Shown: one piece after another, positions 400 to 41,889 of the stretch | Position numbering within the stretch: the stretch's first letter is position 1 | How the letters are laid out: the number at the start of each line of letters is the position of its first letter | DNA from: Malacoraja senta | Taxonomy: Eukaryota | Reading direction: 5' to 3' | Assembly (NCBI GenBank): GCA_038087875.1 | Contig: CM075988.1 | Coordinates: 15,626,001-15,690,000, forward strand | Length of the DNA: 64,000 bases | Translations under genes and position numbers: made by a program | The notes under the pieces: generated by a model | The model's database searches: none | The model's input: the letters and a program-made list of their open reading frames with translations, nothing else | Told to the model about the DNA's origin: nothing

Positions 400-1025
400 T
401 GGTATTTGTCCAGGTCTGCAATATCTCTGATGACCAGCACTTTGGCTTCCTCTGGTGTTCCATTTAATTTAATAAAGATTTTACAGTTTGCAGTCCAGGT
501 ATTTAATATTTTTTTTTGTTTCTTAAGGTATCGTGCTTGTCGGGCTATATCGGCATTTCGTTTTGTTAGGTGCTCATTCATGTATACTTTTGTTCCCTTC
601 AGCTTTCTTCCTTGTTTTAGGAGACTGACTTTATATTTCCTGCTTACAAACCTTATTATGATGGCAGGTTTGTCATCACTATTTTTAACATCTTTCGATT
701 TTTTCCTGGGCAGTGGGTGACAAGCCTCGATGTTATCGCAGTCTACTTGTATACCTTTCGACTGCAGGAAGGCCGCCACCTGTTGCTCCGTGGAGCTTGT
801 GTCCATTTCCCCGGGCTCCCCCCCGTTTTCGTCAGTCACCGCCCGTGCGTATGACCGGGGCTTTATACTGAGCCCGGTAATGATGATGTTGTTCTCTCTG
901 GTGTACTGCTCCAGATCTGCAACTCTGCCCTCCAGGAACACCAGTCGCCGGTCCTTTTCGGCGCTCTGGATCCGAAGATCCCTTACCTCCGCCACGAGGT
1001 CGAGGATGGCTTTCTGCTGTTTTTT
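396..1025 (-). mobile_element. 5'-truncated LINE ORF1 (coiled-coil plus RRM-like, Transposase_22/L1TD1-like), inserted just upstream of the apoA-IV copy 1 promoter
   Basis: Translation contains DLEQYTRENNIIITGL, IEACHPLP, PAIIIRF, VYMNEHLT and TWTANCKIF. The sequence left of 1026 is absent from the equivalent position in repeat copies 2 and 3. Confidence 0.85.
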
Positions 1026-1138
1026 GACTGAGTTGAGACTTGAATGGATTTTGCCCTCTCGTGATTGAGTTGGAGTCATATTTAAGGCAGCAGTTCAGAG
1101 TGACAGTGTTGTTGGAAGCTCCACGTTCTCGTGGCATT

Positions 1139-1265
1139 CAGGGAAAGTCCATGAGTCGAACACAAGTGTGCCAGTTTGTTATCAGCCATTGATAAGGTGC
1201 CCTTATATAGAGTGAGCGCGAGTTGGCTGACACACAGAGCTTCAGGAGGAGCATATCTGAGACAG
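1139..1265 (+). promoter_or_regulatory. apoA-IV copy 1 proximal promoter and non-coding exon 1 (repeated at +8148 and +16296)
   Basis: HNF4-like CAGGGAAAGTCCA at 1139-1151, paired GATA sites TTATCA 1179-1184 and TGATAA 1190-1195, TATATAGA 1204-1211, donor ACAG|GTAAGA at 1265/1266, acceptor TTTTTATGTAG| at 1864/1865. Confidence 0.7.
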
Positions 1266-1905
1266 GTAAGAGGAGCCCTGAGGCTCACATTGCTCCAACC
1301 CAGGCAGCCTGCTTGCTTATCCTTCCAGCGACTATCTCTGTGGACCGCTGAGTGTTGAGGCAACTGGTCAAGGCAAAGCCGTGGGATTAAGAGTATGGTT
1401 TTCTATTTTCAGTAATGTTACAGGCTATAATTGCAGCTTGGCAGGCTGCATTCAGCGAAGATATTTTCCCAGGCTGAAATCTTTAGGATCGGTGGTAGAG
1501 TTTCAGAATGAGGGATGGGCCATTTAGGACTGAGATAAGAAAGGATTTTGTCACTTAAAGGTTGGTAAGTCTTTGGAATTCTTTACCTTGGAGAACTGTG
1601 GAAGCTCAGTCACTGAGTTCATTCAAAATAGGGATGGATAGATTTCTGGATGTTCAAAGTTTCGGGCGATATGAGGATAGTAAAATGATGCCTAGAAGGT
1701 GAGCCTTAATCTTAATGGCAGGGCATGCTCCAAGGGCTGGGCGGTCCACTCCTGCTCTGTTTTCTTGTGTTCTTTTTAATGGAGTTCGGAAGGAGACAAT
1801 TATGCACACCGTATTTTCAATGAGAATTTAAACCCTGGACTAACTGATCTTTATTTTTATGTAGGTTTTCTGCAAAGGGAGAGCAAACAGTTGGAGAACT
1901 CCGCT

Positions 1906-4900
1906 ATGTTTCCCAAGGCAATCCTCCTGCTTCTTGCCGCAGTCTTGGTCCAAGGTATCAGCTTCAAATATTCCTCATTCCCTCTTTTCTTGCACTTAGA
2001 CTGTGATTGGGATTTTGTTATCTTCAAGCATTCTTTCTTGAAGAAGTTCAGATCAGAATTCTTTCTTCAAGAATTAAGTTCAGATCAGACTTTTGGAGCC
2101 CCATGCATTGTCCTTTCTTCCACACATTAGTGTGCTGGGTGAAGCTTGCTTCCTCTCCATTATGATTTTGTGTTAAGCCCAGTTTCCATATATTTAAAGA
2201 CAAGGGATTTTACCCTTGAATCACGCAGCAGTATTTCCAGTAAAGAACACTGGTTCTCACCAGGGTCTGGTGAAGTCTTGTAGCCCATCTGTCGTGTAAT
2301 TTTAGTTTAGGTTAGTTTAGTGACGGGAACAGGGCCTTCGGCCCACTGAGTCCGCGCCGACCAGCAATCCCCGCACACTAACACTATCCTATACAAAGTA
2401 GGGACAATTTACAATTATACCAAGCCAGTTAAACTACAAACATGTATATCTTTGGCATGTGGGAGAAAACCTGAGCACCTGAAGAAAGCCCATGCAGGTC
2501 ATGGGGAGAACATACAAACTCCATGCAGACAGCACCCGTAGTCAGGATCGAATCCGGGCCTCTGGAGTTATAAGGCAACAGCTCTACCAGTACCCCACCG
2601 TGCCGCACATATGAGGAGTGGATGCAGGAAAAGTTCCTCTCGTGTTCCCGTTCTGATTATCTCATTCTTTCTTCCTCACAGACTGTCGGGCTGAGTACAA
2701 TAGAGATCAGGTTCGTGAAGTCTTCTGGAATTACATCAACCAATTGGCCGAGGAAGCCAGGGATAGTGTAGAACTGATTCAAAGCTCAGAAGTCAGCCAG
2801 CAACTCAAGTGAGTATTGGGGATTTGTTAGGGGCAATTGGAAAAGTTCAACCTCTTTACCCCAGGAAGAATTAAAGAGCCAGGAAAAAATTGTAAACAGT
2901 AACTTTGTAACATTGTGAGAAGTTCTTTCTATTTTCCAGATTATGAACCTCACCAACATTATTGTCCATCCCTAATTGTTGATAGGCTAATTTAAGAAGT
3001 CAGTGAGATCTCAACTATGGACCAACAAGGACTTTAGTGAAGCAGCTGGGTCTTTATGACAATCCACTCACCAGTAACAACACTTATATTTTTAATTCCA
3101 AATTTATTTAACCACTAAAATTTAAATGCTTTTCAGTGCAAAATGAATTCAGAAGCTCAGTCTTCATGGATTTGTTAGACCAGCAGCCTAACAACTGTGC
3201 CATATTATTAAGCAATGTTAATGAAGGGGTTTGTTAATGAACAGGAATGAGATAAAAGAATAAAAGAAGGGGCGTATCCCATTGGGGATGGTCGAACAGA
3301 TAAGAAGGGACTTGTCCCAAAACCTCACCCATTCCTTCTATCCAGAGACGCTGCCTGTCCCGCTGAGTTACATTCAGCATTTTGTGTCTATCTCAGGTAA
3401 ACAAAACCTGCTTCTACAAAAGAACTGATCAATCTCTATCTCTGTGGGTGGAAAGTGCAGGTACAAATAGGGGAATGAAATGAATAGGTTCAGCTGGAAA
3501 TATTAATACAGATACAGTTATAGGAATGGCATTTGTGAATGCAGGCACTGGCGCAGGTTAATTCATTTACTTTGAATTGCTAGTTTAGTTTCTAAACCCT
3601 AAGAGTATATAACCTTTGCAGTGTTAATCATCCCCTCAGTAATCTCTCTAAAACGTTATTACCTTACTACTTGTAGAGTTTTACCAATCAATGTGAATGC
3701 CTTTCCACAATCAGATAACATAAAGCACAGAAGACCATTCAACTCATTGTGCTTCACTACACCCTTTATTTTCCTCTCAAATTGTACCAATTACGAAAGG
3801 ACAGAATAAATGAAAGACTTTGGGAGAATCCTAACCTCTCTTCCCAATAAACATGCTGAGTTAACCTGAAAAGATTTCCTGATCCAAATGTCCTTTCGTT
3901 CCCTGAGCTCTGCTTCCCTCTGTAAAACATCTGTTTCAGTCACAGACTTACGCTGAGCTCTGTCTTAATGTATCTCTTCTCTGTAACAAGTTTAACAAAC
4001 AATTGTCTCTCTTTTGCAGTCATCTTATCGAGGAGAATCTGCAGAACGTCAATAACTATGCTGAGGATCTCCGACAGAAGTTGACTCCTTTAACAGATGG
4101 TCTTCGTGAGAAGATGACAGTAGACATTGACAGCCTTCACCAGCAGATAAAAGAACAGCTGGAAGACCTGAAAGACAAACTTTCTCCCTTTGCTGATGGA
4201 GTCCATCAAAAGATTAGCAATAACATTGAAGAATTTCATCAGAGGTTGGCACCTTACACTGAAGAACTTAGCCAACAGCTGAAGAAGAATGCGGAGGAAC
4301 TTAGGCAGAGGTTGACTCCCTTCACTGAAGAGCTTCAGGCCAAACTGGAAGTGAGCGCAGAGAACCTGAGGGAAGTCCTGACTCCCTACGCTGAAGAGCT
4401 CCAGATGAAGATCGATGCAAATATGGACAACATCAAGCAGAATGTGGCTGCCAAAGCTGAAGAATTTCGCTCCAGGTTTGATGAGAATGTCCAGGAGCTG
4501 CGCAGTAGCTTGGCTCCCTACACCGAAGATGTCCAACTGAAGATGAACCAACAGATTGCAGAAATGACCCGGAGGGTGGTGCCTTATGCCGAGATGCTCC
4601 AGACAAAGGTCAACGAGCACGTGGAAGATCTGAACCAAAAGCTGAACCCTTACATCGCCGAACTGAAAGTAAAACTTAACGAGACCGTGGGAAGCATGGA
4701 CCAGAACCTGGCCCCATACATCGAAAATCTCAACACCAACATCAACCAGAGAATCGAGGAGTTCCATCAGAATGTGGCCCCCTACACTGAGCAGCTGAAC
4801 AAGATCATCAGTCAGAATGTGAGGGAGATGCAAGAGGGACTTGCCCTGAATGGAGGCAACGTTCTGCAGGATCTTCAGAACAAGCTCACAACTGTATTTG

Positions 4901-4929
4901 ACGACTTCTGGCAGAATCTGAAGACCTAA
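1906..4929 (+). CDS. apoa4: Apolipoprotein A-IV-like, copy 1; coding exons 1906-1954, 2682-2808, 4020-4929; 361 aa
   Basis: Signal peptide MFPKAILLLLAAVLVQ (49 nt, phase 1), a 127-nt exon DCRAEYNRDQVREVFWNYINQLAEEARDSVELIQSSEVSQQL (phase 2), and a large last exon of proline-punctuated 22-mer amphipathic repeats closely resembling apoA-IV. GT-AG at all junctions; AATAAA at 5104-5109. Confidence 0.93.
2301..2606 (-). mobile_element. tRNA-derived V-SINE (HE1-like) in apoA-IV intron 2; paralogous copies at ~10449-10754 and ~18597-18902
   Basis: Minus strand begins GCGGCACGGTGG..GGTAGAGCTGTTGCC..GGATTCGATCC (A and B boxes), followed by a V-domain-like core and a (CTAAA)n tail. Confidence 0.85.
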
Positions 4930-5653
4930 TTGAGAAGTAGAAAGTGACTCACTCAATCCATGTGTCAGGACAATGGGTCTTCTTGGAGCACTGAAAACAA
5001 GATGCATAAATATAACTAGGCTCAATCTATTTATTTTTTTGCTGAGAGGAATATATTAAAATCATTGATTACAATTCCAGAGTGTGAAATGTAAAATACC
5101 TGCAATAAAACTTTGAATCATCTTTCAGCTAATAATGTTCCATGATTTATTTCATATTCAGATTAGCTTATTGTAATACACAATGGGGTGCGACGAAAGT
5201 TCTTGTTTACATGAAGCCCACAAAGCAAACAGGATACCTACAGTAAAGATTCATACAGCATTAAATACCACCAGTGCAAAACATTAGAAAGGTGAAAGAA
5301 TGTAGTGCAAAATCAGAATAGCACAAAATAATATTAAAATATAAGAAGGGAATGGGGTGTGAAGAGGAGGGTTTTTTCAGGGGGACGTGCAGCAGTGGGA
5401 AAGAAGCTGGTGTTAATCTGGGATTTCTGAACTATCCAGTTCCTTTGAAAGGAATGTCCAGGGTGACAAGTGTCCTTGATGATACTTGCAGCCTTCCCGA
5501 TGCAAAGCACAGGGAGATTGACTGGATGGAGGGAAGTTGTGTGACTGTGATGGACCAGGCTGTGATGGACCAGGCTGTAACTAGGCTGTGTTCAACCACT
5601 CTCTGCGGGGTCAGGTGGGCAAGAACAGAACAGTTGTCATATTCGGCTGAATC

Positions 5654-5841
5654 TTAGAAACATAGAAACATAGAAAATAGGTGCAGGAGGAGGCCATTCG
5701 GCCCTTCGAGCCAGCACCGCCATTCATTGTGATCATGGCTGATCGTCCCCAATCAATAACCCGTACCTGCCTTCTCCCCATATCCCTTGATTCCACTAGC
5801 TCCTAGAGCTCTATCTAACTCCCGCTTAAATCCACCCAGTG
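5654..5841 (-). mobile_element. CR1/HER1-like LINE 3' end with (TTTCTATG)n tail, nested in the Rex1 fragment and present in all three units
   Basis: Reverse complement matches the 3' end of the CR1 at ~43900-44070 (GGCTCGAAGGGCCGAATGGCCT..CCTGCACCTATTTTCTATG). Confidence 0.85.
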
Positions 5842-6243
5842 ATGGACCGGGCTGTCAGACTACTTTCTATAGCACATCTGCAGAAGTTAGAGGTAATCTT
5901 TGTGGATATTACAAATCCTCTCTGATGCCTAGGAATGTAAATACACTGAAACGCTTTATTGATTACCTCATCGGTGTGAAGGGACCTGGCTAGGTTGCGT
6001 GTGATATGGATACCTAGAAAAATGAAGCTGTTGAATATTTCTGCAGCAACTCAATTACAGAGGTCATGGTTATGTTCACCATTCGCTTCCTTGGGTCTAC
6101 AACCAACTCTTTCATCTTGCTAACGTTAAGGGCCAGGTTATTGTCCTGACATGATAACATTAGGGTCTTGATCTTTTTGCTATACTTTGTCTCACTGTTA
6201 TTGTAAGTCCAGCCAACAACAGTGATATTGGTGTTGTAGGTAG

Positions 6244-6460
6244 GCACAAAAAGCTGGAGTTACTCAGTGGGTCAGGCAGCATTGCAGGAGAAATGTGACA
6301 TTTTGGGTTGGGACCTTTTTTTAGAGGTCTGAAGAAGGGTCCCAACCCTAAATGTCACCAATTCCTTTTCTCCTGTGATGCTGCCTGACCCGTTGAGTTC
6401 CTCCAGTTTTTTGTGTCTATCTTCGGTTTAAACCAGCATCTACAGTTCTTCCCTACACAT
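6244..6460. mobile_element. Penelope-derived inverted-repeat fragment with a degenerate hammerhead core (also ~14391-14607 and ~22524-22740)
   Basis: Two arms of the GCTGGAGTxACTCAGxGGGTCAGGCAGCAT repeat in opposite orientation, with central CTGAAGA-AGGGTCCCAACCC-TAAATGTC. Confidence 0.65.
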
Positions 6461-7869
6461 ATCGTTGTTGCACTTGACTACACAATCATGGGTGTACAAG
6501 ATACAAGATACAAGGTACATTTATTTGTCACATGTGCCAGTTGGCACAGTGAAATGTGTGGTCACCATACAGCCATACAATATAAATAAAGAACACAACA
6601 CACAAGGAGTAGAGCATGGCATTTAGCCCACAACCCTGAGGGCTCCAGTGTTGAGGGCCAGGGTGGAGGATATGTTATGCGATCAATTCTCATTGACTGA
6701 GGTCCACTGGTCAAGAAGTCTAGAAGCCAGTTGCAGATGGAGGCCCCAAGGCCAAGGTCTAGAGGTTTAAGGATGAGCTTATTCCGTCTTTTATGCCTTT
6801 TTCATAGCAATAATAATCCAATGCACTATATTAAATGTGACATCTAGTGTAGTAAAAACCTTGGTTGAATGTGCTCATGTGTAAGTCTACAAATGCTAAA
6901 TCTCAGAGGATCCCACAGTTACAGAGATGTGCAGATTCTTCCATTCAATGATCTAGTCCTCAATTGCATCTCTTGGCTTTGGCTCCAGGTACCAGATTTA
7001 CAGCTTTAGACAATTATTGTGGGCACTGGATTAAAATAGTAATCTAATATTTGACGGCTTCAGTGAGAAGGATGTGAAATACCCTATGACGTATCATCTC
7101 TTGGATTTAGAATCCAAGTACCAGCTTTATAGCTTTAGACAATTATTTGGGGCACTGTATTAAAGTGGACACCTAATATTTGACTGCCTCAGTGAGAATG
7201 TCAAATACCCTATGAGATATCAAAAGACTAAGTATCAATGTAGAGGTGTTCAAATCTATTTCTGCTAAAAGAATAGTTCTCCTGGAGAGTAAATGTACTT
7301 ATTCTGCTTGCTGTCCCCTCCTCCCAATACTTTATTATATTGTTAACTGAGAAAAGCTATCACCATCTGCTTCAAATATGTATTAAACACTTCCTGTGCA
7401 TTATCACAGTTTAATATTTTAATATATACAGCCTGCCATTCTCCTCTAGCACCTTTTGTAGTAACGATTCCCCGCTCACTTACTCTGTACTCAGTGCAAT
7501 AGTTTTCCGATTTCCCAAACTCATTCAGTCGCACTTGCTGTAGCCTTGCCTTTACCCCAAATATGTGTGAGCCACCTGACATTGTACTAGCAGCCAGTGG
7601 CACAATTAGCAGAGCTACTGCCTTACCTGTAGCGGCAGGGGCCACATGCGTATGTGTAATGTTTGCACGTTCTCCCTGTAACCGCATGAGATACCTCCAG
7701 GTGCTCCAATTTCCTCCCTATCCCCAAAAGATGCAGGTTGGTAGGTTATTTGTCTACTGCAAGTTACCTCTTGTGTGTAGGTGAGTGGTAGAAACTGGGG
7801 AAGGTTGATGAGAAAATGGGTGAATTAAAAACATGAGATTAGGTAGGATTAGCGTACATTGATGAGCTT

Positions 7870-8189
7870 TTTAGTTTACTTTAGAGATACAGCGTGGAGT
7901 CAGCCCCGACGACCCACTGAGTCCACACCGACCAGCGATCCCCGCACATTAACACTACCCTACACACACTGGGGACAATTTTACATTTATACATTTATAC
8001 CAAGCCATTTAAACTATAAACCTGTATGTCTTTGGAATGTAGGTGGAAACCAAAAGGTCTCGGAGAAAACCCACACAGGTCACGGGGAGGTCGTACAAAC
8101 TCCGTATGGGCAAGCACCCGGTGTCATGATCGAACCCGGGTTTCTGGCATTGTAAGGCAGTAGCTCTACCGCTACGCCACCGTGCTGCC
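7870..8189 (-). mobile_element. V-SINE (HE1-like); paralogous copy ~16017-16336
   Basis: Same family as 2301-2606; the B-box GGGTTCGATC is on the minus strand. Confidence 0.85.
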
Positions 8190-10053
8190 ATCTGCAAGGA
8201 TTCAGAGGGCTAAAGGCTAGTTTCTGTGCTATCTGTCTCTGTGACTATGATAAAGAAGAGGCTTCCAGTGATGATTTACCCTTGCGCAGCTATTTCTACA
8301 TATGCTACAAATGCTATGCCAAAAACACTGTGTCCTTAAGAATAAGGAATTGGCTTATGTGAACATACTCCTCTGGATAGTTTTGATGGTCTTAGCAAAT
8401 TTTCGACAGCTCAAATGAGGTAAAATAGAATCCTTCCTCTTAGGAGGGGGATTGTTTGGCTCATCATGTGTAGGAAGGAACTGCAGATGCTGGTTTATGC
8501 AGAAGATAGACACAAAATGCTGGAGTAACTCAGTGGGTAAGACAGCATCTCTGGAGAAAACGAATAGTGACCTTTCGGGTCAGAACCCTTCTTCGGACTC
8601 ATCATGTTTGTTTAAAGGAATTAATTACTCCATCCATATACTTTCCCCAGGTCAATTTGTTTCCTCTCATCCAATTTACGTAGGGAATTAATGTCTACTT
8701 CCACCCTCTCTCAGGGTACATTCCAGATCATGGCTACTCATTGTGTAATGATCCCCACATCTCCCCTCTGCTTCCTTTGCCGACTACCTCAAATCCTCAG
8801 GGTGCTGTGTGGGAAGGAATTGCAGATGCCGGTTTAAACCGAAGATAAGCACAAAATGCTGGGGTAACTCAATGGGACAGGCAGCATCTCTGGAGAGAAG
8901 GAATGGGTGATGTTTCAGGTCGATTTACTCCAGCATTTTGTGTCTGCCATTGGGTACTGCCTTCTTGCCAATGGAAACGTTTCCATTAAAAACACTTCGT
9001 AGTAAGTCCATAGAACAATCAAAATCTTATAGATGTTAAAATTGAAGCTGTACAATCACTGTATTGTGTCATATGCCGTTGGTTATTTTTTTGTACATTT
9101 GATTCTAACAAATTTATTTAAAAATAAATAAAAAATAAATAAAAATTATAGATGCAATAAATCATGGCCTTTGGACTGAGTTGAGACTTGAATGGATTTT
9201 GCCCTCTCGTGATTGAGTTGGAGTCATATTTAAGGCAGCAGTTCAGAGTGACAGTGTTGTTGGAAGCTCCACGTTCTCGTGGCATTCAGGGAAAGTCCAT
9301 GAGTCGAACACAAGTGTGCCAGTTTGTTATCAGCCATTGATAAGGTGCCCTTATATAGAGTGAGCGCGAGTTGGCTGACACACAGAACTTCAGGAGGAGC
9401 ATATCTGAGACAGGTAAGAGGAGCCCTGAGGCTCACATTGCTCCAACCCAGGCAGCCTGCTTGCTTATCCTTCCAGCGACTATCTCTGTGGACCGCTGAG
9501 TGTTGAGGCAACTGGTCAAGGCAAAGCCGTGGGATTAAGAGTATGGTTTTCTATTTTCAGTAATGTTACAGGTTATAATTGCAGCTTGGCAGGCTGCATT
9601 CAGCGAAGATATTTTCCCAGGCTGAAATCTTTAGGATTGGTGGTAGAGTTTCAGAATGAGGGATGGGCCATTTAGGACTGAGATAAGAAAGGATTTTGTC
9701 ACTTAAAGGTTGGTAAGTCTTTGGAATTCTTTACCTTGGAGAACTGTGGAAGCTCAGTCACTGAGTTCATTCAAAATAGGGATGGATAGATTTCTGGATG
9801 TTCAAAGTTTCGGGCCATATGAGGATAGTAAAATGATGCCTAGAAGGTGAGCCTTAATCTTAATGGCAGGGCATGCTCCAAGGGCTGGGCGGTCCACTCC
9901 TGCTCTGTTTTCTTGTGTTCTTTTTAATGGAGTTCGGAAGGAGACAATTATGCACACCGTATTTTCAATGAGAATTTAAACCCTGGACTAACTGATCTTT
10001 ATTTTTATGTAGGTTTTCTGCAAAGGGAGAGCAAACAGTTGGAGAACTCCGCT

Positions 10054-13000
10054 ATGTTTCCCAAGGCAATCCTCCTGCTTCTTGCCGCAGTCTTGGTCCA
10101 AGGTATCAGCTTCAAATATTCCTCATTCCCTCTTTTCTTGCACTTTGACTGTGATTGGGATTTTGTTATCTTCAAGCATTCTTTCTTGAAGAAGTTCAGA
10201 TCAGAATTCTTTCTTCAAGAATTAAGTTCAGATCAGACGTTTGGAGCCCCATGCATTGTCCTTTCTTCCACACATTAGTTTGCTGGGTGAAGCTTGCTTC
10301 CTCTCCATTCTGATTTTGTGTTAAGCCCAGTTTCCATATATTTAAAGACAAGGGATTTTACCCTTGAATCACGCAGCAGTATTTCCAGTAAAGAACACTG
10401 GTTCTCACCAGGATCTGGTGAAGTCTTGTAGCCCATCTGTCGTGTAATTTTAGTTTAGGTTAGTTTAGTGACGGGAACAGGGCCTTCGGCCCACTGAGTC
10501 CGCGCCGACCAGCGATCCCCGCACACTAACACTATCCTATACAAAGTAGGGACAATTTACAATTATACCAAGCCAGTTAACCTACAAACCTGTATATCTT
10601 TGGCATGTGGGAGAAAACCTGAGCACCTGAAGAAAGCACATGCAGGTCATGGGGAGAACATACAAACTCCATGCAGACAGCACCCGTAGTCAGGATCGAA
10701 TCCGGGCCTCTGGAGTTGTAAGGCAACAGCTCTACCACTACCCCACCGTGCCGCACATATGAGGAGTGGATGCAGGGAAAGTTCCTCTCGTGTTCCCGTT
10801 CTGATTATCTCATTCTTTCTTCCTCACAGACTGTCGGGCTGAGTACAATAGAGATCAGGTTCGTGAAGTCTTCTGGAATTACATCAACCAATTGGCCGAG
10901 GAAGCCAGGGATAGTGTAGAACTGATTCAAAGCTCAGAAGTCAGCCAGCAACTCAAGTGAGTATTGGGGATTTGTTAGGGGCAATTGGAAAAGTTCAACC
11001 TCTTTACCCCAGGAAGAATTAAAGAGCCAGGAAAAAATTGTAAACAGTAACTTTGTAACATTGTGAGAAGTTCTTTCTATTTTCCAGATTATGAACCTCA
11101 CCAACATTATTGTCCATCCCTAATTGTTGATAGGCTAATTTAAGAAGTCAGTGAGATCTCAACTATGGACCAACAAGGACATTAGTGAAGCAGCTGGGTC
11201 TTTATGACAATCCACTCACCAGTAACAACACTTATATTTTTAATACCAAATTTATTTAACCACTAAAATTTAAATGCTTTTCAGTGCGAAATGAATTCAG
11301 AAGCTCAGTCTTCATGGATTTGTTAGACCAGCAGCCTAACAACTGTGCCATATTATTAAGCAATGTTAATGAAGGGGTTTGTTAATGAACAGGAATGTGA
11401 TAAAAGAATAAAAGAAGGGGCGTATCCCATTGGGGATGGTAGAACAGATAAGAAGGGTCTTGTCCCAAAACCTCACCCATTCCTTCAATCCAGAGACGCT
11501 GCCTGTCCCGCTGAGTTACTTCAGCATTTTGTGTCTATCTCAGGTAAACAAAACCTGCTTCTACAAAAGAACTGATCAATCTCTATCTCTGTGGGTGGAA
11601 AGTGCAGGTACAAATAGGGGAATGAAATGAATAGGTTCAGCTGGAAATATTAATACAGATACAGTTGTAGGAATGGCATTTGTGAATGCAGGCACTGGCG
11701 CAGGTTAATTCATTTACTTTGAATTGCTAGTTTAGTTTCTAAACCCTAAGAGTATATAATCTTTGCAGTGTTAATCATCCCCTCAGTAATCTCTCTAAAA
11801 CGTTATTACCTTACTACTTGTAGAGTTTTACCAATCAATGTGAATGCCTTTCCACAATCAGATAACATAAAGCACAGAAGACCATTCAACTCATTGTGCT
11901 TGACTACACTCTTTATTTTCCTCTCAAATTGTACCAATTACGAAAGGACAGAATAAATGAAAGACTTTGGGAGAATCCTAACCTCTCTTCCCAATAAACA
12001 TGCTGAGTTAACCTGAAAAGATTTCCTGATCCAAATGTCCTTTCGTTCCCTGAGCTCTGCTTCCCTCTGTAAAACATCTGTTTCAGTCACAGACTTACGC
12101 TGAGCTCTGTCTTAATGTATCTCTTCTCTGTAACAAGTTTAACAAACAATTGTCTCTCTTTTGCAGTCATCTTATCGAGGAGAATCTGCAGAACGTCAAT
12201 AACTATGCTGAGGATCTCCGACAGAAGTTGACTCCTTTAACAGATGGTCTTCGTGAGAAGACGACAGTAGACATTGACAGCCTTCACCAGCAGATAAAAG
12301 AACAGCTGGAAGACCTGAAAGACAAACTTTCTCCCTTTGCTGATGGAGTCCATCAGAAGATTAGCAATAACATTGAAAAATTTCATCAGAGGTTGGCACC
12401 TTACACTGAAGAACTTAGCCAACAGCTGAAGAAGAATGCGGAGGAACTTAGGCAGAGGTTGACTCCCTTCACTGAAGAGCTTCAGGCCAAACTGGAAGTG
12501 AGCGCAGAGAACCTGAGGGAAGTCCTGACTCCCTACGCTGAAGAGCTCCAGATGAAGATCGATGCAAATATGGACAACATCAAGCAGAATGTGGCTGCCA
12601 AAGCTGAAGAATTTCGCTCCAGGTTTGATGAGAATGTCCAGGAGCTGCGCAGTAGCTTGGCTCCCTACACCGAAGATGTCCAGCTGAAGATGAACCAACA
12701 GATTGCAGAAATGACCCGGAGGGTGGTGCCTTTTGCCGAGACGCTCCAGACAAAGGTCAACGAGCACGTGGAAGATCTGAACCAAAAGCTGAACCCTTAC
12801 ATCGCCGAACTGAAAGTAAAACTTAACGAGACCGTGGGAAGCATGGACCAGAACCTGGCCCCATACATCGAAAATCTCAACACCAACATCAACCAGAGAA
12901 TCGAGGAGATCCATCAGAATGTGGCCCCCTACACTGAGCAGCTGAACAAGATCATCAGTCAGAATGTGAGGGAGATGCAAGAGGGACTTGCCCTGAATGG

Positions 13001-13076
13001 AGGCAACGTTCTGCAGGATCTTCAGAACAAGCTCACAACTGTATTTGACGACTTCTGGCAGAATCTGAAGACCTAA
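10054..13076 (+). CDS. apoa4: Apolipoprotein A-IV-like, copy 2; coding exons 10054-10102, 10830-10956, 12167-13076; 361 aa
   Basis: Same exon structure and splice sites as copy 1, with intact frame. Amino-acid differences from copy 1 include M>T, E>K, Y>F, M>T and F>I. Confidence 0.93.
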
Positions 13077-16000
13077 TTGAGAAGTAGACAGTGACTCACT
13101 CAATCCATGTGTCAGGACAATGGGTCTTCTTGGAGCACAGAAAACAAGATGCATAAATATAACTAGGCTCAATCTATTTATTTTTTTGCTGAGAGGAATA
13201 TATTAAAATCATTGATTACAATTCCAGAGTGTGAAATGTAAAATACCTGCAATAAAACTTTGAATCATCTTTCAGCTAATAATGTTCCATGATTTATTTC
13301 ATATTCAGATTAGCTTATTGTAATACACAATGGGGTGCGACGAAAGTTCTTGTTTACATGAAGCCCACAAAGCAAACAGTATACCTACAGTAAAGATTCA
13401 TACAGCATTAAATACCACAAGTGCAAAACATTAGAAAGGTGAAAGAATGTAGTGCAAAATCAGAATAGCACAAAATAATATTAAAATATAAGAAGGGAAT
13501 GGGGTGTGAAGAGGAGGTTTTTTTCAGGGGGACGTGCAGCAGTGGGAAAGAAGCTGGTGTTAATCTGGGATTTCTGAACTATCCAGTTCCTTTGAAAGGA
13601 ATGTCCAGGGTGACAAGTGTCCTTGATGATACTTGCAGCCTTCCCGATGCAAAGCACAGGGAGATTGACTGGATGGAGGGAAGTTGTGTGACTGTGATGG
13701 ACCAGGCTGTGATGGACCAGGCTGTAACTAGGCTGTGTTCAACCACTCTCTGCGGGGTCAGGTGGGCAAGAACAGAACAGTTGTCATATTCGGCTGAATC
13801 TTAGAAACATAGAAACATAGAAAATAGGTGCAGGAGGAGGCCATTCGGCCCTTCGAGCCAGCACCGCCATTCATTGTGATCATGGCTGATCGTCCCCAAT
13901 CAATAACCCATACCTGCCTTCTCCCCATATCCCTTGATTCCACTAGCTCCTAGAGCTCTATCTAACTCCCGCTTAAATCCACCCAGTGATGGACCGGGCT
14001 GTCAGACTACTTTCTATAGCACATCTGCAGAAGTTAGAGGTAATCTTTGTGGATATTACAAATCCTCTCTGATGCCTAGGAATGTAAATACACTGAAACG
14101 CTTTATTGATTACCTCATCGGTGTGAAGGGACCTGGCTAGGTTGCGTGTGATATGGATACCTAGAAAAATGAAGCTGTTGAATATTTCTGCAGCAACTCA
14201 ATTACAGAGGTCATGGTTATGTTCACCATTCGCTTCCTTGGGTCTACAACCAACTCTTTCATCTTGCTAACGTTAAGGGCCAGGTTATTGTCCTGACATG
14301 ATAACATTAGGTTCTTGATCTTTTTGCTATACTTTGTCTCACTGTTATTGTAAGTCCAGCCAACAACAGTGATATTGGTGTTGTAGGTAGGCACAAAAAG
14401 CTGGAGTTACTCAGTGGGTCAGGCAGCATTGCAGGAGAAATGTGACATTTCGGGTTGGGACCTTTTTTTAGAGGTCTGAAGAAGGGTCCCAACCCTAAAT
14501 GTCACCAATTCCTTTTCTCCTGTGATGCTGCCTGATCCGTTGAGTTACTCCAGTTTTTTGTGTCTATCTTCGGTTTAAACCAGCATCTACAGTTCCTCCC
14601 TACACATATCGTTGTTGCACTTGACTACACAATCATGCGTGTACAAGATACAAGATACAAGATACATTTATTTGTCACATGTGCCAGTTGGCTCAGTGAA
14701 ATGTGTGGTCACCATACAGCCATACAATAAAAATAAAGAACACAACACACAAGGAGTAGAGCATGGCATTTAGCCCACAACCCTGAGGGCTCCAGTGTTG
14801 AGGGCCAGGGTGGAGGATATGTTATGCGATCAATTCTCATTGACTGAGGTCCACTGGTCAAGAAGTCTAGAAGCCAGTTGCAGATGGAGGCCCCAAGGCC
14901 AAGGTCTAGAGGTTTAAGGATGAGCTTATTCCGTCTTTTATGCCTTTTTCATAGCAATAATAATCCAATGCACTATATTAAATGTGACATCTAGTGTAGT
15001 AAAAACCTTGGTTGAATGTGCTCATGTGTAAGTCTACAAATGCTAAATCTCAGAGGATCCCACAGTTACAGAGATGTGCAGATTCTTCCATTCAATGATC
15101 TAGTCCTCAATTGCATCTCTTGGCTTTGGCTCCAGGTACCAGATTTACAGCTTTAGACAATTATTGTGGGCACTGGATTAAAATAGTAATCCAATATTTG
15201 ACGGCTTCAGTGAGAAGGATGTGAAATACCCTATGACGTATCATCTCTTGGATTTAGAATCCAAGTACCAGCTTTATAGCTTTAGACAATTATTTGGGGC
15301 ACTGTATTAAAGTGGACACCTAATATTTGACTGCCTCAGTGAGGATGTCAAATACCCTATGAGATATCAAAAGACTAAGTATCAATGTAGAGGTGTTCAA
15401 ATCTATTTCTGCTAAAAGAATAGTTCTCCTGGAGAGTAAATGTACTTATTCTGCTTGCTGTCCCCTCCTCCCAATACTTTATTATATTGTTAACTGAGAA
15501 AAGCTATCACCATCTGCTTCAAATATGTATTAAACACTTCCTGTGCGTTATCATAGTTTAATATTCTAATATATACAGCCTGCCATTCTCCTCTAGCACC
15601 TTTTGTAGTAACGATTCCCCGCTCACTTACTCTGTACTCAGTGCAATAGTTTTCCGATTTCCCAAACTCATTCAGTCTCACTTGCTGTAGCCTTGCCTTT
15701 ACCCCAAATATGTGTGAGCCACCTGACATTGTACTAGCAGCAAGTGGCACAATTAGCAGAGCTACTGCCTTACCTGTAGCGGCAGGGGCCACATGCGTAT
15801 GTGTAAAGTTTGCACGTTCTCCCTGTAACCGCATGAGTTACCTCCAGGTGCTCCAATTTCCTCCCTATCCCCAAAAGATGCAGGTTGGTAGGTTATTTGT
15901 CTACTGCAAGTTACCTCTTGTGTGTAGGTGAGTGGTAGAAACTGATTAAGGTTGATGAGAAAATGGGTGAATTAAAAACATGAGATTAGGTAGGATTAGC

Positions 16001-18201
16001 GTACATTGATGAGCTTTTTAGTTTACTTTAGAGATACAGCGTGGAAACAGCCCCGACGACCCACTGAGTCCACACCGACCAGCGATCCCCGCACATTAAC
16101 ACTACCCCACACACACTGGGGACAATTTTACATTTATACATTTATACCAAGCCATTTAAACTATAAACCTGTATGTTTTTGGAATGTAGGTGGAAACCAA
16201 AAGGTCTCGGAGAAAACCCACACAGGTCACGGGGAGGTCGTACAAACTCCGTATGGGCAAGCACCCGGCGTCATGATCGAACCCGGGTTTCTGGCATTTT
16301 AAGGCGGTAGCTCTACCGCTACGCCACCGTGCTGCCATCTGCAAGGATTCAGAGGGCTAAAGGGCTAGTTTCTGTGCTATCTGTCTCTGGGACTATGATA
16401 AAGAAGAGGCTTCCAGTGATGATTTACCCTTGCACAGCTATTTCTACATATGCTACAAATGCTATGCCAAAAACACTGTGTCCTTAAGAATAAGGAATTG
16501 GCTTATGTGAACATACTCCTCTGGATAGTTTTGATGGTCTTAGCAAATTTTCGACAGCTCAAATGAGGTAAAATAGAATCCTTCCTCTTAGGAGGGGGAT
16601 TGTTTGGCTCATTATGTGTAGGAAGGAACTGCAGATGCTGGTTTATGCAGAAGATAGACACAAAATGCTGGAGTAACTCAGTGGGTCAGACAGCATCTCT
16701 GGAGAAAACGAATAGTGACCTTTCCGGTCAGAACCCTTCTTCGGACTCATCATGTTTGTTTAAAGGAATTAATTCCTCATTCCATATTCTTTCCCCAGGT
16801 CAATTTGTTTCCTCTCATCCAATTTACGTAGGTAATTTATGTCTACTTCCACCCTCTCTCAGGGTACATTCCAGATCATGGCTACTCATTGTGTAATGAT
16901 CCTCACATCTCCCCTCTGCTTCCTTTGCCGACTACCTCAAATCCTCTGGGTGCTGTGTGGGAAGGAACTGCAGATGCCGGTTTAAACCGAAGATAAACAC
17001 AAAATGCTGGGGTAACTCAACGGGACAGGCAGCATCTCTGGAGAGAAGGAATGGGTGATGTTTCAGGTCGATTTACTCCAGCATTTTGTGTCTGCCATTG
17101 GGTACTGCCTTCTTGCCAATGGAAACGTTTCCATTAAAAACACTTCGTAGTAAGTCCATAGAACAATCAAAATCTTATAGATGTTAAAATTGAAGCTGTA
17201 CAATAACTGTATTGTTTCATATGCCGTTGGTTATCTTTTTGTACATTTGCTTCTAACAAATTTATTTAAAAATAAATAAAAAATAAATAAAAATTATAGA
17301 TGCAATAAATCATGGCCTTTGGACTGAGTTGAGACTTGAATGGATTTTGCCCTCTCGTGATTGAGTTGGAGTCATATTTAAGGCAGCAGTTCAGAGTGAC
17401 AGTGTTGTTGGAAGCTCCACGTTCTCGTGGCATTCAGGGAAAGTCCATGAGTCGAACACAAGTGTGCCAGTTTGTTATCAGCCATTGATAAGGTGCCCTT
17501 ATATAGAGTGAGCGCGAGTTGGCTGACACACAGAGCTTCAGGAGGAGCATATCTGAGACAGGTAAGAGGAGCCCTGAGGCTTACATTGCTCCAACCCAGG
17601 CAGCCTGCTTGCTTATCCTTCCAGCGACTATCTCTGTGGACCGCTGAGTGTTGAGGCAACTGGTCAAGGCAAAGCCGTGGGATTAAGAGTGTGGTTTTCT
17701 ATTTTCAGTAATGTTACAGGCTATAATTGCAGCTTGGCAGGCTGCATTCAGCGAAGATATTTTCCCAGGCTGAAATCTTTAGGATCGGTGGTAGAGTTTC
17801 AGAATGAGGGATGGGCCATTTAGGACTGAGATAAGAAAGGAATTTGTCACTTAAAGGTTGGTAAGTCTTTGGAATTCTTTACCTTGGAGAACTGTGGAAG
17901 CTCAGTCACTGAGTTCATTCAAAATAGGGATGGATAGATTTCTGGATGTTCAAAGTTTCGGGCGATATGAGGATAGTAAAATGATGCCTAGAAGGTGAGC
18001 CTTAATCTTAATGGCAGGGCATGCTCCAAGGGCTGGGCGGTCCACTCCTGCTCTGTTTTCTTGTGTTCTTTTTAATGGAATTCGGAAGGAGACAATTATG
18101 CACACCGTATTTTCAATGAGAATTTAAACCCTGGACTAACTGATCTTTATTTTTATGTAGGTTTTCTGCAAAGGGAGAGCAAACAGTTGGAGAACTCCGC
18201 T

Positions 18202-21200
18202 ATGTTTCCCAAGGCAATCCTCCTGCTTCTTGCCGCAGTCTTGGTCCAAGGTATCAGCTTCAAATATTCCTCATTCCCTCTTTTCTTGCACTTAGACTGT
18301 GATTGGGATTTTGTTATCTTCAAGCATTCTTTCTTGAAGAAGTTCAGATCAGAATTCTTTCTTCAAGAATTAAGTTCAGATCAGACTTTTGGAGCCCCAT
18401 GCATTGTCCTTTCTTCCACACATTAGTGTGCTGGGTGAAGCTTGCTTCCTCTCCATTCTGATTTTGTGTTAAGCCCAGTTTCCATATATTTAAAGACAAG
18501 GGATTTTACCCTTGAATCACGCAGCAGTATTTCCAGTAAAGAACACTGGTTCTCACCAGGGTCTGGTGAAGTCTTGTAGCCCATCTGTCGTGTAATTTTA
18601 GTTTAGGTTAGTTTAATGACGGGAACAGGGCCTTCGGCCCACTGAGTCCGCGCCGACCAGCGATCCCCGCACACTAACACTATCCTATACAAAGTAGGGA
18701 CAATTTACAATTATACCAAGCCAGTTAACCTACAAACCTGTATATCTTTGGCATGTGGGAGAAAACCTGAGCACCTGAAGAAAGCCCATGCAGGTCATGG
18801 GGAGAACATACAAACTCCATGCAGACAGCACCCGTAGTCAGGATCGAATCCGGGCCTCTGGAGTTGTAGGGCAACAGCTCTACCACTACCCCACCATGCC
18901 GCACTTATGAGGAGTGGATGCAGGAAAAGTTCCTCTCGTGTTCCCGTTCTGATTATCTCATTCTTTCTTCCTCACAGACTGTCGGGCTGAGTACAATAGA
19001 GATCAGGTTCGTGAAGTCTTCTGGAATTACATCAACCAATTGGCCGAGGAAGCCAGGGATAGTGTAGAACTGATTCAAAGCTCAGAAGTCAGCCAGCAAC
19101 TCAAGTGAGTATTGGGGATTTGTTAGGGGCAATTGGAAAAGTTCAACCTCTTTACCCCAGGAAGAATTAAAGAGGCAGGAAAAAATTGTAACATTGTGAG
19201 AAGTTCTTTCTATTTTCCAGATTATGAACCTCACCAACATTATTGTCCATCCCTAATTGTTGATAGGCTAATTTAAGAAGTCAGTGAGATCTCAACTATG
19301 GACCAACAAGGACATTAGTGAAGCAGCTGGGTCTTTATGACAATCCACTCACCAGTAACAACACTTATATTTTTAATTCCAAATTTATTTAACCACTAAA
19401 ATTTAAATGCTTTTCAGTGCGAAATGAATTCAGAAGCTCAATCTTCATGGATTTGTTAGACCAGCAGCCTAACAACTGTGCCATATTATTAAGCAATGTT
19501 AATGAAGGGGTTTGTTAATGAACAGGAATGAGATAAAAGAATAAAAGAAGGGGCGTATCCCATTGGGGATGGTAGAACAGATAAGAAGGGTCTTGTCCCA
19601 AAACCTCACCCATTCCTTCTATCCAGAGACGCTGCCTGTCCCGCTGAGTTACTTCAGCATTTTGTGTCTATCTCAGGTAAACAAAACCTGCTTCTACAAA
19701 AGAACTGATCAATCTCTATCTCTGTGGGTGGAAAGTGCAGGTACAAATAGGGGAATGAAATGAATAGGTTCAGCTGGAAATATTAATACAGATACAGTTA
19801 TAGGAATGGCATTTGTGAATGCAGGCACTGGCGCAGGTTAATTCATTTACTTTGAATTGCTAGTTTAGTTTCTAAACCCTAAGAGTATATAACCTTTGCA
19901 GTGTTAATCATCCCCTCAGTAATCACTCTAAAACATTATTACCTTACTACTTGTAGAGTTTTACCAATCAATGTGAATGCCTTTCCACAATCAGATAACA
20001 TAAAGCACAGAAGACCATTCAACTCATTGTGCTTGACTACACTCTTTATTTTCCTCTCAAATTGTACCAATTACGAAAGGACAGAATAAATGAAAGACTT
20101 TGGGAGAATCCTAACCTCTCTTCCCAATAAACACGCTGAGTTAACCTAAAAAGATTTCCTGATCCAAATGTCCTTTCGTTCCCTGAGCTCTGCTGCCCTC
20201 TGTAAAACATCTGTTTCAGTCACAGACTTATGCTGAGCTCTGTCTTAATGCATCTCTTCTCGGTAACAAGTTTAACAAACAATTGTCTCTCTTTTGCAGT
20301 CATCATATCGAGGAGAATCTGCAGAACGTCAATAACTATGCTGAGGATCTCCGACAGAAGTTGACTCCTTTAACAGATGGTCTTCGTGAGAAGATGACAG
20401 TAGACATTGACAGCCTTCACCAGCAGATAAAAGAACAGCTGGAAGACCTGAAAGACAAACTTTCTCCCTTTGCTGATGGAGTCCATCAGAAGATTAGCAA
20501 TAACATTGAAAAATTTCATCAGAGGTTGGCACCTTACGCAGAAGAACTTAGCCAACAGCTGAAGAAGAATGCGGAGGAACTTAGGCAGAGGTTGACTCCC
20601 TTCACTGAAGAGCTTCAGGCCAAACTGGAAGTGAGCGCAGAGAATCTGTGGGAAGTCCTGACTCCCTACGCTGAAGAGCTCCAGATGAAGATCGATGCAA
20701 ATATGGACAACATCAAGCAGAATGTGGCTGCCAAAGCTGAAGAATTTCGCTCCAGGTTTGATGAGAATGTCCAGGAGCTGCGCAGTAGCTTGGCTCCCTA
20801 CACCGAAGATGTCCAGCTGAAGATGAACCAACAGATTGCAGAAATGACCCGGAGGGTGGTGCCTTATGCCGAGATGCTCCAGACAAAGGTCAATGAGCAC
20901 GTGGAAGATCTGAACCAAAAGCTGAACCCTTACATCGCCGAACTGAAAGTAAAACTTAACGAGACCGTGGGAAGCATGGACCAGAACCTGGCCCCGTACA
21001 TCGAAAATCTCAACACCAACATCAACCAGAGAATCGAGGAGTTCCATCAGAATGTGGCCCCCTACACTGAGCAGCTGAACAAGATCATCAGTCAGAATGT
21101 GAGGGAGATGCTAGAGGGACTTGCCCTGAATGGAAGCAACTTTCAGCAGGATCTTCAGAACAAGGTCACAACTGTATGGGACGACTTCTGGCAGAATCTG

Positions 21201-21227
21201 AAGAACGAATTGAGAAGTAGAAAGTGA
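18202..21227 (+). CDS. apoa4: Apolipoprotein A-IV-like, copy 3; coding exons 18202-18250, 18978-19104, 20300-21227; 367 aa with extended C-terminus
   Basis: Same structure as copies 1 and 2. It ends ...NGSNFQQDLQNKVTTVWDDFWQNLKNELRSRK*, with GAA where copies 1 and 2 have TAA. Confidence 0.93.
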
Positions 21228-23052
21228 CTCACTCAATCCATGTGTCAGGACAATGCGTCTTCTTGGAGCACAGAAAACAAGATGCATAAATATAACTAGG
21301 CTCAATCTATTAATTTTTTGCTGAGAGGAATATATTAAAATCATTGATTACAATTCCAGAGTGTGAAATGTAAAATACCTGCAATAAAACTTTGAATCAT
21401 CTTTCAGCTAATAATGTTCCATGATTTATTTCATATTCAGATTAGCTTATTGATATACACAATGGGGTGCGACGAAAGTTCTTGTTTACATGAAGCCCAC
21501 AAAGCAAACAGTATACCTACAGTAAAGATTCATACAGCATTAAATACCACAAGTGCAAAACATTAGAAAGGTGAAAGAATGTAGTGCAAAATCAGAATAG
21601 CACAAAATAATATTAAAATATAAGAAGGGAATGGGGTGTGAAGAGGAGGGTTTTTTTCAGGGGGACGTGCAGCAGTGGGAAAGAAGCTGGTGTTAATCTG
21701 GGATTTCTGAACTATCCAGTTCCTTTGAAAGGAATGTCCAGGGTGACAAGTGTCCTTGATGATACTTGCAGCCTTCCCGATGCAAAGCACAGGGAGATTG
21801 ACTGGATGGAGGGAAGTTGTGTGACTGTGATGGACCAGGCTGTGATGGACCAGGCTGTAACTAGGCTGTGTTCAACCACTCTCTGCGGGGTCAGGTGGGC
21901 AAGAACAGAACAGTTGTCATATTCGGCTGAATCTTAGAAACATAGAAACATAGAAAATAGGTGCAGGAGGAGGCCATTCGGCCCTTCGAGCCAGCACCGC
22001 CATTCATTGTGATCATGGCTGATCGTCCCCAATCAATAACCCGTACCTGCTTTATCCCCATATCCCTTGATTCCTCTAGCTCCTAGAGCTCTATCTAACT
22101 CCCGCTTAAATCCACCCAGTGATGGACCAGGCTGTCAGACTACTTTCTATAGCACATCTGCAGAAGTTAGAGGTAATCTTTGTGGATATTACAAATCCTC
22201 TCTGATTCCTAGGAATGTAAATACACTGAAACGCTTTATTGATTACCTCATCGGTGTGAAGGGACCTGGCTAGGTTGCGTGTGATATGGATACCTAGAAA
22301 AATGAAGTTGTTCAATATTTCTGCAGCAACTCAATTACAGAGGTCATGGTTATGTTCACCATTCACTTCCTTGGGTCTACAACTAACTCTTTCATCTTGC
22401 TAACGTTAAGGGCCAGGTTATTGTCCTGACATGATAACATTAGGTTCTTGATCTTTTTGCTATATTTTGTCTCACTGTTATTGTAAGTCCAGCCAACAAC
22501 AGTGATATTGGTGTTGTAGGTAGGCACAAAAAGCTGGAGTTACTCAGTGGGTCAGGCAGCATTGCAGGAGAAATGTGACGTTTCGGGTTGGGACCTTTTT
22601 TTAGAGGTCTGAAGAAGGGTCCCAACCCTAAATGTCACCAATTCCTTTTCTCCTGTGATGCTGCCTGACCCGTTGTGTTACACCAGTTTTTTGTGTCTAT
22701 CTTCGGTTTAAACCAGCATCTACAGTTCCTCCCTACACATATCGTTGTTGCACTTGACTACACAATCATGGGTGTACAAGGAGTAGAGCATGGCATTTAG
22801 CCCACAACCCTGAGGGCTCCAGTGTTGAGGGCCAGGGTGGAGGAAATGTTATGCGATCAATTCTCATTGACTGAGGTCCACTGGTCAAGAAGTCTAGAAG
22901 CCAGTTGCAGATGGAGGCCCCAAGGCCAAGGTCTAGAGGTTTAAGGATGAGCTTATTCCGTATTGTGATGTTGAATGCTGAGCTGTAGCCAATGAGTATC
23001 ATCCTGACATAGGTGTTCTTCTTGTGTCGGAAGGAACTGTAGATGCTGGTTT

Positions 23053-40649: not shown

Positions 40650-41889
40650 CTCACACATAGATGCATTATTTGGGGATTAATCTGTTGTTTAAAGTCCAAT
40701 GTTGTGCTTGCAATAGCGTGACTGTTAGTTAACCAAACACAAAGTGTGCTATGCATGTTTATAGAGTTAGAAACACAAAGGCATAATCAAAGTTCACATC
40801 CTGGAACAGAATGGTTCATTTCACCAGTCTCACAGCAAGTTCAATGAATTTCATGACTACATAATGGTTGATATAGGGCCAATAATTAGAACATTTTGAT
40901 CAGAGAGTACCAGTGTTAATTATGCTAGAGTTTTTAAAAACAATCTTACAGCAGTAAAATGAAGAAACTCAGAATTACTTTAAATGTGTTAAAATGTGGA
41001 AAGATATAGAAGATTTCATAGACAGGTTATTTCTCCTCCTTCAATCAGTCACCTATACACTGTAGGTGCTGGTGTAGAGCAGTTGGTCCAGGGACACCCA
41101 AATGGACATAATTCAAAGGGTTTCGGCCCAAAACGTTGCCTATTTCCTTCGCTCCATAGATGCTGCTGCACCCGCTAAGTTTCTCCAGCATTTTTGTGTA
41201 CCTGGACATAATTCAAATGTTACCCTAGTTCATAATAACATTACAGTCACTCCTGCTCTGGTCTTTACAATATTGGCTTACATTTCAAATGGATCGCTGG
41301 TGGAACTTGACCGCAATTAAGACAATTAAGACTCAAACCCAACTGTAGACTTCCTATACAGATTGAAGGATTCGGTTTAAATTGGACCATCCTCTTCAGC
41401 ATGACTCAGTCCTGTGGACCGAGGGGAGGAGACGTTTTCAGGGGTCCACTGTCAAAATAGTTTGTATTTCTTAATTGATTCATCATTCCATCCCACAATG
41501 TATCCGTCATTGTCATCTTCTTACAGTGAGTTTGGGTGTTGCGGGCAATCTATAACAGTTCAATGAGGGAGGAGGAGCTTGGCAAATATTTGTGGCCAAT
41601 TCCAACCTTGCCCAGGTTCTCAATTATCAGCCGAACAGGGAGAGAGAATGGTGGAAATACTCAACATTTGTGACCAGTTCTGATAAAAAAGATTATTGAC
41701 TTGAAATATGAACTTAATTTCTCTCCTCAGCTTCTGTGTACTTCTGGCATTTTCTATTTCTATCTGAGATTTCAAGCTTCATCTACTCATCTACTATGGC
41801 TCATGTTGTGCAGCCACATCATTGATTCCAAATGCAGAATTTAATTCACAAGAATAGCGTTTTTTTCCGACAATTAAGGGATAATGCAT

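Follow-up and report, generated by a model that had tools for sequence, protein, structure and literature searches.

Clustered nonsynonymous divergence at the C-terminus of tandem apoA-IV-like gene copies, and local diversifying selection as a candidate explanation

In human apoA-IV, the N- and C-termini are joined by a clasp through F334/F335. Domain 333-376 of the human protein is described as restraining cholesterol efflux, C-terminal variants as altering lipid affinity, and C-terminal EQQQ repeats as a feature of mammalian apoA-IV (PMC6523623), for whose gene, APOA4, three exons and the loss of the first intron are reported in mammals (PMC6854765, PMC6523623). Several apoA-IV paralogues are known from one fish, the zebrafish, in which apoa4b.1/2/3 all occur in plasma; these are independent duplicates, and the available text reports no C-terminal island in them (PMC4829857). 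Outside this family, HMA4 of Arabidopsis halleri is likewise described as having three tandem copies, patchy homogenisation and a C-terminal nonsynonymous excess, although that case involves a long disordered domain and population data, whereas ours involves 33 codons of predicted helix in the sequence of one array (10.1101/2025.10.29.685298). Rapid divergence of C-termini among tandem duplicates has been described before; the island described here is a modest further example of it and establishes no new mechanism. A search of a limited open-access literature gave no publication on this locus, or on selection acting on the apoA-IV copies of cartilaginous fishes. The zebrafish apoa4b duplicates are far older than the copies studied here.

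The window, a stretch of 64 kb, contains three head-to-tail apoA-IV-like gene copies, in units that are 98-99% identical (Table 1); its repeat content points to a cartilaginous fish as the probable source. Each copy has three coding exons with canonical splice sites, a TATA-like box, a poly(A) signal and an ORF, of 361, 361 and 367 aa respectively. The copies have the layout of the exchangeable apolipoproteins A1/A4/E, with a signal-peptide exon, a short third exon and a long last exon of amphipathic helical repeats, the last exon scoring 244 and 253 bits on PF01442 against a gathering cut-off of 90. The best solved-structure match is human apoA-IV (E 1.7e-51, vs 3.9e-24 for apoA-I and 6.7e-9 for apoE), which is colinear over the last exon (PDB 9HX4, 3S84), residue 352 aligning with chain F355 (mature F335). 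In a tree of 31 rows (most of them unnamed, midpoint root), a 20-row clade supported at 100/97 includes alligator apoA-IV, and the window proteins group at 96/98 with four unnamed proteins, the fork to tetrapod apoA-IV not being resolved by this tree. The gene belongs to the apoA-IV/apoA-V group rather than to the apoA-I type. We call the copies apoA-IV-like because of the unsettled fork, the four predicted exons and the missing EQQQ tail. Unlike human apoA-IV, and unlike what is expected of a strict APOA4 orthologue, every copy has an exon 1 predicted to be non-coding and lacks the EQQQ repeats; a further contrast with human apoA-IV is that the window proteins end 9-15 residues past residue 352 and are encoded by three tandem copies.

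A search of the protein collection found no close named orthologue, its 12 matches all lying at 25-38% identity; the best representative sequence reached 41%. The C-terminal region was matched by 0 of 24 candidates, and the exact window protein sequences were absent from this collection. Four apoA-V-type or non-mammalian apoA-IV-like proteins (P0006 of Erpetoichthys, P0009 of Gopherus, and the unnamed P0024 and P0037, which we take to be apoA-V-type) share the terminal motif D-L-x-x-K/R-L-x-x-hydrophobic-W, with an end 0-4 residues past it in 13 of the 24 homologues scored, and resemble copies 1 and 2 in length and copy 3 in its W352, at 25-35% identity to the window proteins and with no paralogue-level detail. 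Besides the array, only one other apolipoprotein gene was seen in the window, a divergent fourth gene that faces the array on the minus strand (36268-30225; PF01442 E 8.8e-13, below the gathering score), with a signal-peptide exon at ~36268-36220, a second at ~35130-35015 and a last exon at ~30746-30225, these limits being set by eye.

Table 1. Positions in the window of the tandem units, their gene parts and the divergence island.
Feature	Position	Strand	Remarks
Tandem unit 1	1022..9169	+	Intact 361-aa ORF
Unit 1 exons	1906-1954, 2682-2808, 4020-4929	+	Island counterpart 4832-4927
Tandem unit 2	9170..17317	+	Intact 361-aa ORF
Unit 2 exons	10054-10102, 10830-10956, 12167-13076	+	Island counterpart 12979-13074
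Tandem unit 3	17318..22964	+	Terminal, shorter; mosaic, change point near 19900-20100
Copy 3 TATA-like box and predicted non-coding exon 1, GT donor at its end	17500..17561	+	Predicted from sequence only
Same TATA-like box and predicted exon 1 in copies 1 and 2	1204-1265, 9352-9413	+	Predicted likewise
Portion of copy 3 exon 2 that encodes the signal peptide	18202..18250	+	Protein identical across the three copies
Copy 3 coding exon 3	18978..19104	+	Protein identical across the three copies
Copy 3 last coding exon	20300..21227	+	PF01442, 244 bits
Divergence island in copy 3 last exon	21112..21207	+	Codons 330-362; differs from copies 1/2 at 9 nt
Terminal amphipathic helix, residues 343-360	21150..21203	+	Homologous to last helix of A1/A4/A5-type apolipoproteins
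Read-through extension of copy 3, ELRSRK*	21207..21227	+	TAA>GAA; net +2 charge
Copy 3 polyadenylation signal, AATAAA	21383..21388	+	Sequence motif

The island comprises nine nucleotide changes in eight codons, including the loss of the stop, and no synonymous change: from copies 1/2 to copy 3, Q330L (21112), G338S (21135), V340F (21141), L341Q (21145), L348V (21165), F352W (21178-9), T361N (21205) and stop>E (21207). All nine had been listed in the initial annotation, and each was found at its position. Across 5646 gap-free columns of the aligned units, we identified 53 copy-3-specific, 24 copy-1-specific and 23 copy-2-specific sites, with nine of the 53 falling within these 96 nt (permutation p=0.00025 for sites over the whole unit). 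Merging copy-3-specific sites within 3 nt of one another left 48 events, seven of them in the island (p=0.005; multi-scale adjusted 0.023), and with the 3' half alone as background p was 0.0013 (sites) and 0.023 (events). The remainder of the unit had been described as differing only at scattered sites, which is inexact: with the island excluded, the copy-3-specific sites are uneven and overdispersed (index 2.0, p=0.003), the best neutral cluster lying at the end of intron 3, where 7 sites occupy 175 nt (p=0.06). The background is patchy but has no spike of equal density, its maximum being 4 copy-3-specific sites per 96 nt. Specific sites of copies 3, 1 and 2 are distributed in a star-like manner in the 5' half of the unit (12/13/15), whereas copy 3 is the divergent one in the 3' half (41/11/8). 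Copy 3 additionally has a 15-nt deletion at 19185 and a 106-nt deletion at 22775, and is without the 2.4-kb spacer found after copies 1 and 2. The coding changes specific to copy 2 are all nonsynonymous (4/4; M91T, Y248F, M251T and F307I, at 12262-12909). Thus, the island is a real and statistically unusual difference, in a segment picked after the data had been seen and with small numbers.

We compared the array with contigs of four of 24 listed public sequencing runs, X1 (organism A) and X3, X6 and X13 (organisms B, C and E). The last three differ from the window by 2.6-3.6% in the exon and by 5.8-7.3% in the 3' UTR; 40 of the 94 differing places were listed, the remaining five island sites being read indirectly. 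At 21112, 21135 and 21165, every contig of X3, X6 and X13 carries the copy-1/2 letter, as do all those of X3 and X6 at 21141, where 183 of 243 depth units in X13 also carry it. Since the relatives carry the copy-1/2 letters, L330, S338 and V348 arose in copy 3, and so most likely did F340, although it may predate the species, as 60 of the 243 X13 depth units lack the copy-1/2 letter. Record 10 of X13 (21087-21147) has four differences, all at listed sites, so that 21145 matches copy 3, and the two differences of record 14 (21153-21200) are likewise at listed sites, so that 21178-9 match copy 3 as well; in X3, X6 and X13 the listed sites exhaust the A>T counts, and only one G>T occurs in X6. 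The ancestral states are therefore Q341 and W352, with L341 and F352 arising in the ancestor of copies 1 and 2, in agreement with a family alignment in which W is the commonest residue at 352 (21/55). The same alignment has L as the commonest residue at 348 (33/55), R/K at 330 (15/21) and E at 341 (9/21). Polarity is shown at seven of the nine island bases. As to the stop, X13 and part of X3 have a sense codon in place of copy 3's own stop, and of the 24 homologues scored (62 tried) 13 end 0-4 residues beyond the terminal helix; judged on these sequences, the early stop is probably ancestral, with T361N and the stop loss new in copy 3. Changes are found on both the copy-3 and the copy-1/2 side, and the island is therefore a two-sided divergence and not a peculiarity of copy 3, contrary to the framing in the title of the initial annotation, which had placed the substitutions in copy 3.

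The island offers ~71-77 nonsynonymous and 22-29 synonymous sites, giving a dN of ~0.12 (9/71-77) and a dS of 0; taken alone, the zero synonymous count is weak (p=0.04-0.10 for nine sites, 0.09-0.17 for seven events). In non-coding DNA of the same half, copy 3 diverges from copies 1/2 by 0.015-0.017, island dN being ~7-8-fold higher, and at this flank rate the probability of at least nine nonsynonymous and no synonymous changes is ~1e-6, or ~1e-4 for seven events, for a single window whose choice is uncorrected. Against the 3' UTR divergence to the three related organisms (0.058-0.073), island dN is ~2-fold higher, and the nonsynonymous count alone gives p 0.05-0.19. The ratio of nonsynonymous (N) to synonymous (S) changes, 9N:0S, differs from that of the remaining coding sequence in Fisher tests, whether this is counted as 3N:4S (p=0.019) or as 8N:6S over all copies (p=0.048). 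With 8N:6S among copies, 9N:11S among listed sites and an omega of ~0.3-0.5, the rest of the coding sequence shows purifying selection; at the listed sites, the island differs from it at p=0.022 (Fisher). Further differences to the related organisms in this segment, among the places listed, are G332R, N346T and D354N, all nonsynonymous; X13 contig ends hint at third-position variants near 21125 and 21143, beyond the listed places, which would make this count of outgroup differences incomplete.

An AlphaFold model of the last exon is all-helical (mean pLDDT 78), with one long helix over the island (pLDDT ~70); the model leaves out the N-terminal 40 mature residues and is mute on N-C contact. 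HMMER aligned V351/W352 with chain residues F354/F355 (mature 334/335) of human apoA-IV, across a 7-residue gap before the last helix that leaves the register partly uncertain; one MAFFT run put tetrapod apoA-IV 11 residues off, while the HMMER register is backed by P0050 and P0087 when scored without gaps. Of the changes, those at 341, 348 and 352 are located on the hydrophobic face and that at 340 at its edge; no proline or charge enters this face over residues 339-361, and amphipathy is preserved (moment 0.46 vs 0.52). In the hinge, the family proline at 335 (P in 12/20 homologues) has been lost, which fits low constraint there.

We infer that selection caused the clustered changes. The best single explanation, with about an even chance of being correct, is diversifying selection acting locally on the terminal amphipathic helix in both lineages; besides the clustering and the rates, it is supported by the independent alteration of one short segment in two lineages, and by an ORF, splice sites, a TATA-like box and a poly(A) signal being retained in all three copies. 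The positive selection proposed in the initial annotation was thus placed in the right region and remains the leading explanation, with the amendments that both isoforms have changed and that relaxed constraint is a serious rival. Under diversifying selection, an apoA-IV-like gene would have been recently duplicated in tandem and its last 33 codons (hinge and terminal helix) would then have diversified, copy 3 gaining L330, S338, F340, V348 and probably N361 with the six-residue basic tail, and the ancestor of copies 1 and 2 gaining L341 and F352. Going by homology only, the terminal helix would set lipid affinity and self-association; the swaps, which are mostly hydrophobic for hydrophobic and keep amphipathy, would have retuned binding instead of abolishing it, and the outcome, again by homology, would be two isoforms with different lipid-binding kinetics. 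If selection is the true cause, the array would hold a natural isoform pair that is 96% identical over the last exon and differs mainly in the presumed lipid-gating helix, and would give a very early snapshot of paralogue divergence. W vs F at the match of human F335, together with the presence or absence of the basic tail, would then allow the model of C-terminal control to be tested in a distant vertebrate.

The main rival, possible but tentative, is relaxed constraint on an older tract, in which the tip tolerates most substitutions and the rest of copy 3 was overwritten by crossing-over or conversion, or the tract came from a since-lost paralogue. Copy 3 is indeed mosaic (change point p=0.03), and we identified in X3, X6 and X13 a second paralogue class, which has the exon in common with the window type and diverges in its flanks at ~20283 and ~21255, with a different intron and 3' UTR and at a depth above that of the window-type flank. 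Loose ends near 20283 and 21255 were not found in X1, and the 3' flank of the second class had 0 matches in the 64-kb window with up to 3 mismatches allowed. The relatives seem to homogenise the last exon between old paralogues (exon-limited concerted evolution), and the array of organism A was apparently rebuilt by whole-unit duplication, the second class being lost or replaced there. This class is a possible donor of an older tract, with no positive sign of having been one. A minus-strand frame of 232 codons (396-1094; no Pfam match), which presumably resembles LINE ORF1, crosses the left edge of unit 1 and is cut at the unit 2 and 3 junctions, suggesting that unit 1 keeps the original left flank.

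At a species-level age (d=0.065) and an omega of 1, the probability of at least nine nonsynonymous and no synonymous changes is 0.006-0.016 for sites, and that of at least seven and none is 0.03-0.06 for events, which is tolerable for a window taken from a large scan. The segment also looks fast between organisms, and the C-terminal nonsynonymous excess of tandem HMA4 is itself read, in the part of the source available, as possibly reflecting low constraint (10.1101/2025.10.29.685298). Against this, an older tract requires both maximal age and a full loss of constraint on a helix whose L348 and W352 are, among 55 homologues, the residues most often found at their positions (33 and 21), no synonymous difference marks the tract, L330, S338 and V348 were in none of the outgroup contigs compared, and the window holds no donor. 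A selected island shielded from conversion is expected to show raised divergence at linked synonymous and non-coding sites. We found 0 synonymous differences at ~22-29 sites, a comparison of low power with ~1.8 expected at maximal age. The suggestion that conversion homogenised everything except the island gains no positive support, as no synonymous site in the island has diverged and copy-3 alleles at three sites are absent from the outgroup contigs examined; it keeps some room from a probability of zero synonymous changes of ~0.17 at species-level age. For an ectopic donor or template switch, the longest perfect match elsewhere in the window that spans a copy-3 variant is only 6-8 nt, and 6-11 nt for the copy-1 form.

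Chance clustering of mutations is unlikely, although error-prone repair or template switching could have given nearby transversions, with the lack of synonymous changes as luck. Such an origin would accord with two tandem or near-tandem changes (21178-9; 21205/21207) and with the excess of transversions (8/9 within the island vs 21/44 outside, p=0.03), and merging of neighbours weakens the scan to p=0.005-0.02; however, the changes lie on two different lineages, for which one event is insufficient, and no template was found locally or window-wide (matches of 6-8 nt). We consider it rather improbable that the last-exon body is homogenised clade-wide between paralogues, even those whose flanks are unrelated, and the terminal helix repeatedly diversified by an outside partner (a blood parasite, microbe or receptor) and not by lipid chemistry. 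The two-sided change would fit such a hypervariable tip, as would the densely branching contigs of organisms C and E at 21087-21213, a pattern that bubble removal can bias; a link to parasites would be pure analogy.

In X1, one contig of 156 nt (depth 6.8) matches the copy-3 island without any difference, and a separate one of 140 nt (depth 17.9) has all nine alternative letters. Consensus error, which the initial annotation had named as a possible refutation, is very unlikely because the first contig reproduces the island letter for letter. X1 behaves as DNA, as its contigs run through the intron; it is possibly the source sample of the window, and is therefore evidence for the existence of the sequence but not for its fixation in the species. 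Its depths fit three or four haplotype classes, at least three haplotypes being present, and the island could be a heterozygous or segregating allele instead of a fixed paralogue difference. An assembly artefact, whether consensus errors or alleles assembled as tandem copies, is highly improbable: the 98-99% identity of the units and depths in X1 that permit a heterozygous allele would allow it, but the island and its nine alternatives stand in separate contigs among at least three haplotypes, and Q341 and W352 of copy 3 match related organisms, unlike errors. We gave no weight to the absence of copy-3 alleles on either side of the island in X1, as contigs drop minor variants, and did not count the word share of X2 (0.66; expected ~0.70 without the island and 0.79-0.82 with it; 0.74 in X1) as evidence.

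Finally, we identified mobile-element sequences elsewhere in the window. An uninterrupted LINE reverse-transcriptase frame of 717 codons is present at 41826-43979 (PF00078, E 3e-32). At 53637-60013, two identical 546-nt direct repeats (53637-54182 and 59468-60013) flank minus-strand ORF pieces, one of which matches the retroviral envelope family PF00429 (E 6e-9), and this region has the features of a very young LTR element, with a putative env-like region split over two frames.
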